Source: a virus
Lineage: Duplodnaviria; Heunggongvirae; Uroviricota; Caudoviricetes
Length of the DNA: 8,131 bases
Reading direction: 5' to 3' (one strand)
IMG/VR virus record: IMGVR_UViG_2671180298_000006
Location: 1-8,131 of that record
Positions 4,407 through 5,443 of the stretch are shown here, piece by piece; position 1 is the stretch's first letter; the number at the start of each line of letters is the position of its first letter. The position numbers and the translations under genes are program-made. The notes beneath the pieces are model-generated. The model did no database searches. It worked only from the letters and a program-made list of their open reading frames with translations, and was not told where the DNA came from.

Positions 4407-4439
4407 GATACATTATGTATCCCAAAGGTACATTGTCAA
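4407..4439 (-). promoter_or_regulatory. PL-like leftward early promoter with embedded operator (OL-like)
   Basis: On the - strand: TTGACA (rc of 4434-4439), a 16-17 nt spacer, then CATAAT (rc of 4412-4417). The palindrome ATGTATCC-caaa-GGTACAT (4415-4433) sits between the -35 and -10 and shares half-sites with the two operators next to the repressor gene; GATACAT-t-ATGTATC (4407-4421) overlaps it. Confidence 0.45.
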
Positions 4440-4442
4440 GTA

Positions 4443-4466
4443 TAAAAAAACCTGCCGAAGCAGGTT
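4443..4466 (-). terminator. Rho-independent terminator downstream of the repressor gene
   Basis: AACCTGC-cgaa-GCAGGTT perfect 7-bp stem (4449-4466); on the - strand it is followed by a run of 7 T (the A-run 4444-4450 on +). It begins 12 nt past the repressor stop. Confidence 0.6.
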
Positions 4467-4477
4467 ATAAATATTGA

Positions 4478-5152
4478 TTAGGCCTTTATTATGTATCTTC
4501 TTGGTTTTCCTGAGAAAATCACTGTACCAATTATAGAGCAATTACCGTTAATCTTAATGTAAGGCTCAGGCCAGTTTGGGTTTAATGCTTTGAGATAACG
4601 CTGTGTTCCATCTTCTATCAACCGCTTGAAGGTGGTTTCGCCTGTATCGTGCATCAATGCAATAACGTCGTCACCGTGGCAGGCAGGGACTTCAGGATCA
4701 ACAAAAATCATGTCTCCCGGGCGGTACTCATCAATCATTGAATCACCAATCACCCGCAAGATATAAGTCATTTCGCCACAGGGTACAGGGCAGGGATAAG
4801 TTTCTGCTGTGCTCAAATCAACCTCAGAATAGCCAACTTCTTTCCATGCTCCGGCCTGTACCCATGATATGACAGGGACTAACGTTATTTGTTTGTTAGT
4901 GATTGAAACGTCAGGTTTTTTTGTGATGTTCGTTGTCTGGTGTTCTTGATCAAGCCATCCGACAGGCAGGTCGAAACATTTTTCGATGTGCCGTGCCATG
5001 CTGTCACCGATATTTTTAGTTGCACCATCTCCCATAAACCTGCTGGTCTGGGTTGGCTCGCGATCAATCATGGTGGCAAAGGAAGAATTCCCGCCAACAC
5101 CATCTCTCAGTTTTCTGGCGTTAGACCGCCGGATGTCATGGACTGTTTTCAT
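4478..5152 (-). CDS. CI/LexA-like phage repressor with C-terminal S24 peptidase (autocleavage) domain
   Basis: ORF track 4478..5152, 224 aa. N-terminal HTH-like region ending …PVGWLD. C-terminal domain has the Ala-Gly cleavage motif (WVQAGAW), the serine nucleophile in GDSM, and a downstream lysine (TFKRL). It is divergent from a cro-like gene, with operators in the intergenic region. No strong SD is seen, so translation may be leaderless or weakly initiated as with lambda cI. Confidence 0.8.
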   Translation of the reverse strand: MKTVHDIRRSNARKLRDGVGGNSSFATMIDREPTQTSRFMGDGATKNIGDSMARHIEKCFDLPVGWLDQEHQTTNITKKPDVSITNKQITLVPVISWVQAGAWKEVGYSEVDLSTAETYPCPVPCGEMTYILRVIGDSMIDEYRPGDMIFVDPEVPACHGDDVIALMHDTGETTFKRLIEDGTQRYLKALNPNWPEPYIKINGNCSIIGTVIFSGKPRRYIIKA

Positions 5153-5168
5153 AAAGAAATTAAAACCT

Positions 5169-5237
5169 TTGTACCGATAAGGTACAAGTATCTTGAAGGT
5201 TCATCTCAATCATGTAATATGTATACCGGAGGTACAT
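5169..5237. promoter_or_regulatory. Divergent PRM/PR-like control region with two palindromic operators
   Basis: TTGTACC-gataa-GGTACAA (5169-5187, perfect 7-bp arms) and ATGTATACC-gga-GGTACAT (5219-5237, imperfect) lie between the divergent repressor (start 5152) and cro-like (start 5243) genes. A rightward promoter candidate is TTGAAG (5193-5198) with a 16-nt spacer to TAATAT (5215-5220). Confidence 0.5.
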
Positions 5238-5242
5238 ATTGT

Positions 5243-5443
5243 ATGAAAGCGTATTGGGACTCTTTAACCAAAGAACAGCAGGGTGAGTTGGCCGGAAAAG
5301 TTGGCTCAACACCAGGCTACTTACGGCTGGTTTTCAATGGTTATAAAAAAGCCAGTTTTGTGCTGGCTAAAAAACTTGAGCAATGCACGTCAGGTGCAAT
5401 TACGAAATCTGACTTAAGACCGGATATCTATCCGAAAGATTAA
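5243..5443 (+). CDS. Cro/YdaS-like small HTH regulator (66 aa)
   Basis: ATG at 5243-5245 with GGAGG about 10 nt upstream; MKAYWDSLTKEQQGELAGKVGSTPGYLRLVFNGYKKASFVLAKKLEQCTSGAITKSDLRPDIYPKD; TAA at 5441-5443. This is the internal, RBS-supported start of track ORF 4940..5443. Its position divergent from the repressor and its C-terminal …LRPD… motif fit Cro/YdaS-type proteins. Confidence 0.6.
   Translation: MKAYWDSLTKEQQGELAGKVGSTPGYLRLVFNGYKKASFVLAKKLEQCTSGAITKSDLRPDIYPKD

Follow-up and report, generated by a model that had tools for sequence, protein, structure and literature searches.

A lysogeny switch already known from e14 and SfV, left intact in a lambda-like prophage that has probably lost its middle

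Does a lysogeny switch that persists in a prophage without lytic genes serve the host, or is it a leftover of the phage? The question is raised by 8,131 nt of Caudoviricetes DNA (the window; positions 1 to 8,131 of IMG/VR record IMGVR_UViG_2671180298_000006), whose features are collected in Table 1. The switch is ordinary, and signs of domestication are absent. The region that holds the switch is, with high probability, an immunity region of the e14/SfV immunity type on a mosaic lambda-like prophage of the dusA-integrating kind, its SOS control being a leftover of the phage programme. The middle of this lambda-like prophage was recently lost by deletion, and the switch was left intact.

Table 1. 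Coordinates of features in the window; operators and promoters are predictions
Feature	Positions	Strand	Remarks
Bidirectional terminator	1221-1246		closes the early-left operon
Early-left operon	1250-3791	minus	yfdP, yfdQ, membrane-protein gene, excisionase-like gene
Excisionase-like gene	1250-1531	minus	PHROG 1300; 'PrtN-like' in the preliminary description
Membrane-protein gene	1568-2350	minus	28% GC; early-left operon
yfdQ	2539-3363	minus	early-left operon
yfdP	3429-3791	minus	early-left operon
Structured leader between PL and yfdP	3795-3975	minus	terminator-like hairpin (about 3935-3975), then long conserved hairpin; folding z-score -6.2
OL2, weaker operator	4396-4412		TGTTTC-TTTTA-GATACA; overlaps PL -10 and start site; 15.2 bits
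PL-like promoter	4412-4439	minus	TTGACA-16-CATAAT; 11/12 consensus match
OL1 operator	4416-4432		TGTATC-CCAAA-GGTACA; fills PL -35/-10 spacer; 23.1 bits
Intrinsic terminator of repressor gene	4449-4466	minus	7-bp stem, then T run; immediately upstream of PL
Repressor gene, CI/YmfK/CohE type	4478-5152	minus	224 aa; Pfam S24, lambda CI alignment, YmfK/SfV cI identity
PRM-like promoter	5159-5187	minus	putative; -10 TTTAAT (5164 to 5159), -35 TTGTAC (5187 to 5182)
OR-a operator	5170-5186		TGTACC-GATAA-GGTACA, perfect palindrome; over PRM -35 and spacer; 22.5 bits
Candidate middle operator	5187-5203		AGTATC-TTGAA-GGTTCA; over PR -35; 11.8 bits
PR-like promoter	5193-5220	plus	TTGAAG-16-TAATAT, reading into cro; 8/12 consensus, read directly from sequence
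OR-b operator	5220-5236		TGTATA-CCGGA-GGTACA; over PR -10 end, start site and cro ribosome-binding site; 20.8 bits
cro-like gene, YmfT/CroE type	5243-5443	plus	66 aa; 65/66 identical to K-12 YmfT
CII-like ymfL, first 125 codons	5487-5861	plus	NCBIfam YmfL, Pfam Phage_CP76
Deletion junction ymfL::J	5860-5861		2-nt overlap (TA); codon 125 of ymfL joined out of frame to codon 408 of J
Lambda-type J tail-tip gene, 3' two-thirds	5862-8131	plus	from codon 408, without its own start

A preliminary description of the window had read the switch as intact and lambda-style, and so it appears from its sequence, with a repressor of the autocleavable type, a divergent cro and predicted operators over the leftward and rightward promoters. 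The claim that the repressor carries a complete S24 domain is borne out by a match of residues 93-212 to Pfam Peptidase_S24 (PF00717) at 92.8 bits (cut-off 23.3). The catalytic residues are present on alignment to lambda CI, Ala100-Gly101, Ser138 and Lys176 falling on Ala111-Gly112, Ser149 and Lys192 of the lambda CI structures within matching motifs (VQA100-G101 and VQA111-G112; GDS138M and GNS149M; TFK176 and TFK192). In the N-terminal 88 residues no Pfam match to a helix-turn-helix domain was obtained, even at E = 10; the N-terminus has a weak match (E = 6.6e-4) in the N-terminal domain of 5d50, a phage repressor structure, and the protein also matches the repressor families PHROG 12107 and PHROG 5736. 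No frameshifts or stop codons were found in the repressor and switch genes.

The repressor is identical to K-12 e14 YmfK/CohE at 222 of 224 residues (99%), 99.6% identical to the cI proteins of SfV and phage cdtI, and 99-99.6% identical to those of the functional phages SfV, SfIV, cdtI, 2H10, Ayreon and Stx2c phages as a group. A relative of it is encoded by 503 of the 510 matching stretches in the viral collection, the best 80 of which are 99-100% identical, and many viral contigs carry 100% identical copies. Cro is 98% identical to YmfT/CroE and matches PHROG 35 (transcriptional repressor), with weak matches to HTH_3 and YdaS. Because both proteins are so nearly those of e14, because the SfV and cdtI repressors are equally close, and because a putative operator region is already annotated in SfV, the switch, as read from its sequence, is one already known from the Escherichia coli e14 prophage and Shigella phage SfV, and is not novel.

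Judged by sequence only, from where the sites fall among the promoter hexamers, clusters of predicted operators lie across the two lytic promoters as well as that of the repressor, whose gene is divergent from cro. The near-consensus leftward promoter is as previously described, with a palindrome inside its spacer, and its hexamers are also present in e14, SfV, yong2 and EPP-1. PR, at 8/12, fell under the threshold of the promoter scan; equivalent hexamers with the same spacing occur in yong2 and EPP-1. The hexamers and spacing of PRM are likewise the same in these two, and the PRM region differs from that of K-12 by two bases. PRM would start at the A of the repressor ATG at 5152 and give a leaderless mRNA; no Shine-Dalgarno sequence lies 5' of this ATG, and the ymfK mRNA has been mapped as leaderless in K-12 (PMC4681348). 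The SfV GenBank record annotates a terminator equivalent to that of the repressor gene here.

The three related palindromes of the preliminary description are present, and a motif search across the element located the strong sites, all within the immunity region. The pattern TGTA-N7-GGTACA occurs on the plus strand of the window exactly three times, at OL1, OR-a and OR-b, and these are also its only matches in a 45.8-kb locus comprising an intact relative and its chromosomal flank. When one mismatch was allowed on both strands, five matches were obtained, all at the same three sites, against 0.41 expected, and none of 200 shuffles reached five. The half-site originally proposed (TGTAnCC) is slightly off, a 17-bp site TGTAYC-N5-GGTACA being a better description; OR-a is the only perfect palindrome among the three strong sites. 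The earlier count of three thus stands for the strong sites but is incomplete, two weaker sites having been added, OL2 and the candidate middle operator. When a position weight matrix was built from the three strong sites only, it ranked OL2 fourth and the middle site fifth, both in the window and in the 45.8-kb locus, and five sites of at least 10 bits were observed against 0.22 per shuffle. All five sites, three exact and two weaker, are confined to the immunity region.

The pattern of variation among related loci argues for this operator model. In 84 such loci the half-sites hardly vary, in contrast to the hypervariable 5-bp spacers: variable columns number 5 of 48 in half-sites, 16 of 20 in spacers and 19 of 72 in the remaining intergenic DNA (Fisher's test for half-sites versus spacers, p = 4.5e-8). 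At OR-a no half-site column varies in the 84 loci, and three of the five spacer columns do; at OL1, among 31 haplotypes, a single half-site column varies, in one haplotype, and all five spacer columns vary. OR-b has conserved outer bases and variable inner ones. The centre of OL2, which lies 20 bp from OL1 centre to centre, varies among related loci while TGTnTC...GnTACA is kept, one variant being the near-perfect palindrome TGTATC-CTATA-GATACA. Relative to cI, cro and PL, the operator half-sites keep their sequence and place in e14, SfV, K-12 and 80 viral contigs. In yong2 and EPP-1, whose repressors are 80% and 74% identical, respectively, operators and promoter hexamers occupy the same positions and the spacers differ; OL1 is kept in both, and in EPP-1 a second site, corresponding to OL2, lies 20 bp away from it. 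Close haplotypes all keep the GGTTCA of the middle site, apart from one singleton change, as do yong2 and EPP-1, and nearby positions 5205-5207 of the PR spacer are hypervariable. Conservation of this candidate could, however, partly or simply reflect its overlap with the PR -35.

Is the switch responsive to DNA damage? This is very likely, because switches almost identical to it can be induced by the SOS response or by UV in K-12 e14 and phage SfIV, although the functional evidence for the switch is all borrowed from such near-identical relatives. In e14, ymfJ on the leftward side, ymfM on the rightward side and intE show late induction as part of the SOS response to DNA damage (PMC11002266), ymfM being the SfiC division inhibitor, which is SOS-inducible and not LexA-controlled (bioRxiv 10.1101/2020.11.19.390815). 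UV induces phage SfIV (PMC3851460), and cohE is classed as essential in the Keio collection (PMC5992433). A search of the window for LexA boxes (CTGT-N8-ACAG, up to one mismatch) returned two matches against 2.46 expected, neither near the switch. With the count at chance and no box nearby, direct LexA control is therefore not indicated.

In the proposed working of the switch, the repressor would bind as a dimer to its 17-bp operators. On the leftward side, OL1 and OL2 would cover the spacer, -10 and start site of PL; on the rightward side, occupancy predicted from position would place OR-b over the PR start and the candidate middle site over the PR -35. OR-a lies over the PRM -35 and spacer, so that repressor or Cro should turn PRM off there; the repressor would be made from a leaderless mRNA, as in lambda. 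Upon DNA damage, activated RecA would stimulate self-cleavage at Ala100-Gly101 by the Ser138/Lys176 pair, a step that we infer from the aligned residues and the published behaviour of near-identical switches, and PL and PR would thereby be freed. The deletion, with its 2-nt overlap, has fused codon 125 of ymfL to codon 408 of J, such that derepressed PR would yield only Cro and a CII-like protein cut short, together with a J fragment that has no promoter of its own. Derepressed PL would yield only yfdP, yfdQ, the membrane-protein gene and the excisionase, provided that transcription passes the leader hairpin. Prophage immunity would still be conferred by the switch, and any SOS control of the remaining genes would be, as in K-12 e14, a remnant of the normal phage programme and not a new adaptation.

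The leftward genes had been regarded as accessory cargo, a view that does not hold: YfdP- and YfdQ-like genes are standard early-left genes of functional phages, SfV, ST64B and mEp460 among them, and the protein called PrtN-like matches an excisionase family (E = 1e-39). No defence-system match was returned by PADLOC among the leftward or left-end genes. The structured leader is conserved upstream of yfdP-like genes in 62 phage records and is approximately 96% identical in SfV. Between PL and the leader hairpins there is no minus-strand ORF of at least 40 aa, nor an N-like antiterminator. The stretch from 3960 to 4405 (folding z = -0.03) seems to be non-coding and without structure; it may be a decayed gene, because SfV has orf33 at the equivalent place. 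When the window was searched in full against Rfam, with E values up to 1 admitted, the only matches were sub-threshold ones around the terminator at 1182-1254, and none fell in switch or leader. Given the terminator-like hairpin between PL and yfdP and the lack of an N-like antiterminator, read-through from PL to the early-left genes would be only conditional.

The reported loss of lytic genes is real in the sequence for the portion of the element inside the window, and the loss is judged on this visible portion because the window ends within J. As had been noted, a tail gene fragment ends the rightward operon; from 5862 to the window end it corresponds to nt 1223-3492 of a 3498-nt lambda-type J (tail tip), with 100% identity to gpJ of strain CUVET16-819. 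On the other side of the joint, ymfL is 100% identical to intact ymfL up to 5861; its frame continues into J sequence to a stop at 5993, and the J frame stays open between 5858 and the end of the window. Missing are the genes for replication, lysis and the head and most of those for the tail, which occupy the interval between ymfL and J in the intact relative. Over bases 1-5861, identity to the corresponding part of 44-kb prophages that look intact is 99.9-100%. The ymfL::J junction is absent from all 5,426 complete E. coli genomes searched, a 39-nt junction pattern had no match in species-representative genomes, viral contigs or metagenome contigs, and no exact match was obtained for the fusion ORF, whichever of its two start codons was used. 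In light of the near-identity of the flank and the uniqueness of the junction, the deletion appears to be recent and private, and not a retained or selected state.

These observations bear on the earlier proposal of a domesticated circuit, in which the host kept the switch because DNA-damage control of yfdP, yfdQ, the membrane protein and the PrtN-like gene was useful. Such a history would fit a switch that is intact though the lytic genes between ymfL and J are gone, and K-12 e14 offers a precedent, being defective as a prophage and yet still conferring SOS-inducible phenotypes on its host through its repressor. Yet identity with intact prophages leaves no time for selection to have acted on the deleted state, and by the junction and flank comparison that state is neither conserved across lineages nor diverged under selection. 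Moreover, the leftward genes are those of active phages, one of them an excisionase, and ymfM, the sole e14 gene with a known SOS phenotype, would fall in the deleted stretch. Domestication is thus unsupported and very unlikely. It is also a long shot that the switch of this deletion derivative has a selected DNA-damage output, be it dusA excision by way of the excisionase or expression of YfdP, YfdQ and the low-GC membrane protein; the separate suggestion that the leader is an undescribed cis-acting RNA controlling early-left expression in N-less lambda-like phages is equally speculative. If it were true, the role of the leader might be that of a processing site or read-through element.

Alternatively, no lytic functions were lost, and the joint is an assembly chimera in which an intact e14/SfV-immunity prophage was misjoined to the J gene of another lambda-like prophage. 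The uniqueness of the junction in all collections searched is compatible with this, J is repeated with high similarity across E. coli prophages (a median of two and up to 13 matching places per genome), and the best J match sits in a prophage at another chromosomal site. Assemblers, however, collapse at shared repeats, whereas ymfL and J have only 2 nt in common at the joint, an overlap characteristic of illegitimate recombination rather than of misjoining at a repeat, and both flanks are otherwise clean sequence. A chimera is accordingly improbable. That the switch is a silent relic, its repressor or promoters no longer functional in this strain, is hardly credible: identical copies of the repressor, of Cro and of every operator and promoter occur in many intact prophages and viral contigs, and the coding sequences are undisrupted.

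The preferred reading, an e14/SfV-type immunity region on a recently deleted prophage, carries little weight as a discovery, as prophages of E. coli and Shigella commonly carry this immunity type, whose tie to SOS-inducible phenotypes is already established. What the analysis adds is the sequence-level operator model, with two 17-bp sites at PL and two or three at PR/PRM, which rests on the population pattern of conserved half-sites and hypervariable spacers. No published equivalent was found in a literature search that stopped short of the e14 and SfV genome descriptions. Footprinting of CohE and CroE could be planned from the model, which could also help to predict superinfection immunity among Stx2c, cdtI and SfV-type phages.

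Comparison with lambda reveals a shared plan in a different sequence. As in lambda, the repressor is of the S24 autocleaving type with an Ala-Gly site and a Ser/Lys pair, cI and cro are divergent, partly symmetric 17-bp predicted operators are clustered over PL and PR with one over PRM, the cI mRNA is leaderless (as mapped in K-12 ymfK), and a CII-like gene follows cro. OR-a is positioned as the equivalent of lambda OR3 and OR-b as that of OR1. Unlike lambda, identity to CI is only about 34% and is confined to the C-terminal domain, the half-site sequence differs, OL has two sites and OR two or three (spaced 20, 17 and 33 bp centre to centre), and neither an N gene nor rexAB between cI and PL is present. 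SfII, SfV and SfIV are described as being without N, cII and cIII homologues (PMC3851460).

SfV, like SfIV, has the layout seen here, with the cI terminator, PL and leader followed by yfdP-like orf32 and yfdQ-like orf31, and its GenBank record marks a "putative operator region" between cI and cro, as well as terminators. SfV differs in being a complete, inducible phage, in having the extra orf33 between PL and leader, and in carrying int-xis and gtr genes at the end of the leftward arm. With the immunity region of e14, the cryptic prophage of K-12 (ymfK/cohE, ymfT/croE, ymfL), gene lengths and spacing are shared; PL, terminator, operators and the PR/PRM region are approximately 96% identical in DNA, and the half-sites are identical. 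It is only near 4384, some 25 nt downstream of the start of PL, that homology to e14 begins. The leftward genes of e14 are ymfJ, ymfI, ymfH, xisE and intE, as opposed to yfdP, yfdQ, the membrane-protein gene and the excisionase, and e14 integrates at icd whereas the element here is of the dusA-integrating kind. Also unlike e14, the rightward operon here is cut within ymfL, and ymfM (SfiC) is absent. Both e14 and the present element are nonetheless defective prophages with an intact switch.

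The window carries an immunity type already described elsewhere, in a prophage that has recently undergone a deletion. Its features are collected in the table.

Features of the window, left to right
Feature	Position	Strand	Remarks
Panacea/SocA-type antitoxin gene	1-573	plus	Pfam PF13274, E = 1.8e-18
139-aa ORF	570-989	plus	4-nt overlap with antitoxin gene; sole family match PHROG 19071
57-aa ORF	left end	plus	
Bidirectional terminator	1221-1246		reached by left-end plus genes and converging minus block
Excisionase-like gene	1250-1531	minus	
Membrane-protein gene	1568-2350	minus	260 aa, 28% GC
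yfdQ	2539-3363	minus	
yfdP	3429-3791	minus	
PL	4439 to 4412	minus (leftward)	TTGACA-16-CATAAT
Terminator	4449-4466		between PL and repressor gene
Repressor gene	4478-5152	minus	
cro	5243-5443	plus	
CII-like ymfL gene	from 5487	plus	
Lambda-type J tail-tip gene	5862 to window end		internal-to-3' part

At the prophage end, the antitoxin gene and the 139-aa ORF (no Pfam, NCBIfam or PADLOC family) form a pair, 1-989, that resembles a toxin-antitoxin system whose toxin is unclassified. The predicted membrane-protein gene, low in GC against the 42-50% of its neighbours, has its own promoter-like sites just upstream, and PHROG 14996 as its sole match; it resembles a 'moron', an extra gene inserted into the early-left operon.

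The switch elements claimed in the preliminary description, an S24 repressor, three palindromes and a leftward promoter (PL), are all in place. The S24 domain of the repressor is complete, and its Ala100-Gly101, Ser138 and Lys176 align to the cleavage site and catalytic pair of lambda CI structures. Exact matches to TGTA-N7-GGTACA occur at 4416-4432 (OL1), which fills the PL spacer, and at 5170-5186 (OR-a) and 5220-5236 (OR-b) in the 90-bp repressor-cro intergenic region. Allowing one mismatch, a search of both strands yields five matches, all at these three sites, versus 0.41 expected (observed count reached in 0 of 200 shuffles), and the same sites are the only matches in a 45.8-kb locus of E. 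coli CDF6 comprising an intact relative and 20 kb of chromosome. The three palindromes with their shared half-site are thus confirmed, though the motif, given as TGTAnCC, fits better as TGTAYC-N5-GGTACA. Likewise the three operators stand but their number does not: a weight matrix trained solely on variants of the three strong sites ranks two extra sites directly after them, in the window and the 45.8-kb locus alike, namely 4396-4412 (OL2, 15.2 bits) and 5187-5203 (11.8 bits), giving five sites of at least 10 bits versus 0.22 per shuffled window. At 20 bp from OL1, OL2 overlaps both the -10 and the start of PL; related loci keep TGTnTC...GnTACA with a varying centre, one variant being a near-perfect palindrome, and phage EPP-1 has a clear second site, also 20 bp from its first. 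The candidate at 5187-5203 overlies the -35 of PR, the rightward promoter into cro. Its right half, GGTTCA, is kept throughout the relatives bar one singleton change, and the nearby PR-spacer positions 5205-5207 are hypervariable; as a putative operator it is less certain than OL2, and its conservation could partly belong to PR itself. The predicted five-site model, with its population support, sharpens the original three-site observation.

In a geometry inferred from sequence, PR would consist of TTGAAG (5193-5198), a 16-nt spacer and TAATAT (5215-5220), with OR-b spanning the predicted start site and the cro ribosome-binding site. The hexamers of PRM, the putative promoter of the repressor gene, lie on the minus strand, TTTAAT (5164 to 5159) 6 nt upstream of the ATG (5152) and TTGTAC (5187 to 5182) 17 nt farther upstream. 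Because this ATG has no Shine-Dalgarno sequence and the -10-like TTTAAT is so close, a leaderless repressor mRNA is predicted; the K-12 ymfK mRNA is leaderless by experimental mapping (PMC4681348), and its promoter region differs from that of the window by two bases. OR-a lies across the -35 and spacer of predicted PRM, a position like that of lambda OR3, and should mediate shut-off of repressor synthesis.

Control regions were compared between the window and 83 related loci: cryptic prophage e14 of K-12, Shigella phage SfV, CDF6, and 80 viral contigs, the best of 510 matching stretches, with repressors 99-100% identical. PL-side sequence was obtained from 81 loci. The loci comprise 31 different sequences on the PL side and 26 on the PR side. 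In their alignments, variation affects 5 of the 48 half-site columns (6 bp per half-site), 16 of the 20 spacer columns (5 bp per spacer) and 19 of the 72 columns of other intergenic DNA (Fisher's exact test, half-sites versus spacers p = 4.5e-8, versus other intergenic DNA p = 0.037, values that overstate independence since the haplotypes are related). Conserved half-sites with variable spacers are the classic signature of a dimeric repressor, which would contact the outer bases only. In Hafnia phage yong2 and Edwardsiella phage EPP-1, whose repressors are 80% and 74% identical, the operators and the PL, PR and PRM hexamers hold the same positions and the spacers differ.

About 620 nt without a convincing ORF separate yfdP from the PL region. 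Its PL-proximal part, ~430 nt (3960-4405, minus strand), has no minus-strand ORF of at least 40 aa and folds ordinarily (z = -0.03); at the matching slot SfV has an extra gene, orf33, and yong2 a tRNA-Gly(CCC) gene, and the stretch is therefore a variable insertion slot. It runs to a strongly structured RNA leader directly upstream of yfdP (3795-3975, minus; folding z-score -6.2), composed of a terminator-like hairpin, a hairpin of ~25 bp whose internal loop is conserved, and a small hairpin ahead of the ribosome-binding site. The leader has no Rfam match and is conserved ahead of yfdP-like genes in 62 phage records, which differ in immunity type and include Salmonella ST64B, a Klebsiella phage and Citrobacter phiNP. 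When six sequences are aligned, 93% of cells pair, versus 43-50% in slid controls, and 7 pairs carry compensatory change, versus 3.5 in shuffles. In these N-less phages it might serve as a processing or read-through element.

The preliminary description saw a domesticated switch controlling accessory cargo. The leftward genes are instead the normal early-left set of active phages, the yfdP-yfdQ pair recurring as SfV orf32/orf31, ST64B sb37/sb36 and in phiNP. The supposed PrtN-like gene fits excisionase family PHROG 1300 (E = 1e-39); its protein also matches Pfam PyocinActivator, and excisionase is preferred because the gene ends the leftward operon. Nor does the deletion speak for domestication. 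Over positions 1-5861 the window shares 99.9-100% identity with one end of lambda-like prophages from many E. coli strains, of which the sole one examined in full, that of CDF6, is integrated at dusA, spans ~44 kb and carries genes for replication, lysis, head and tail; its integrase lies at the far end. (There, at ~3565-7093 of locus L086, the integrase gene precedes a DinI-like gene and then a SLATT-domain and reverse-transcriptase gene pair suggestive of a defence module.) In the window ymfL matches the intact gene exactly through nt 375 and then joins nt 1223 of J, out of frame, with TA alone shared. This junction is spanned by no complete E. coli genome searched and was not found in species-representative, viral or metagenome collections; exact look-up found no record of the fusion ORF. 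This marks the deletion as private and of recent date; an assembly error is the less likely alternative. There is no sign that the deleted state has been retained under selection.

By analogy with the near-identical switches of e14 and Shigella phage SfIV, the reading of an SOS-responsive lysogeny switch appears right. In K-12, e14 ymfJ (first leftward gene), ymfM (rightward operon) and intE show late induction after DNA damage, ascribed by the authors to the CI-like repressor, not LexA (PMC11002266); SfiC, the long-sought SOS-inducible division inhibitor, is ymfM (bioRxiv 10.1101/2020.11.19.390815), and the SOS-sensitive repressors listed include YmfK (PMC8249747). The Keio collection scored cohE essential, as it did other prophage repressors and antitoxins (PMC5992433), which fits a repressor active in a defective prophage. 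SfIV, reported to share identical cI and Cro with SfV, is UV-inducible (PMC3851460). A search of the window found no LexA box near the switch. The only e14 gene with a known SOS phenotype, ymfM, would fall in the deleted part.

In the resting cell the repressor would keep PL and PR shut and limit its own synthesis, and immunity to SfV- and cdtI-type phages is expected of a strain carrying the remnant. DNA damage would bring about repressor self-cleavage; freed PR would then yield Cro and a truncated CII-like protein, and freed PL would transcribe the 430-nt unstructured leader before running into the terminator-like hairpin, behind which lies the long conserved hairpin. No N-like antiterminator is present, by ORF search of the PL leader and by the SfIV paper (PMC3851460). 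Given the terminator-like hairpin and the lack of such a protein, PL-driven expression of yfdP, yfdQ and the excisionase is no more than likely. Induction may also excise the remnant, as it does e14, provided that the integrase end survives beyond the window.

The switch is not novel. Its repressor is identical to YmfK/CohE of e14 at 222 of 224 residues and its Cro to YmfT/CroE at 65 of 66, and the DNA is 96% identical to e14 from ~4384 rightwards, a point slightly downstream of where PL transcription begins. The same repressor (99-99.6% identical) serves as cI in a number of functional phages: SfV, SfIV, cdtI, 2H10, Ayreon and a series of Stx2c phages. The viral contig collection has 510 stretches that match, and 503 of them encode a relative. 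In its GenBank record SfV already carries a 'putative operator region', placed between cI and cro, and a terminator downstream of cI. The switch is therefore of the e14/SfV immunity type, which moves as a cassette between mosaic lambda-like phages.
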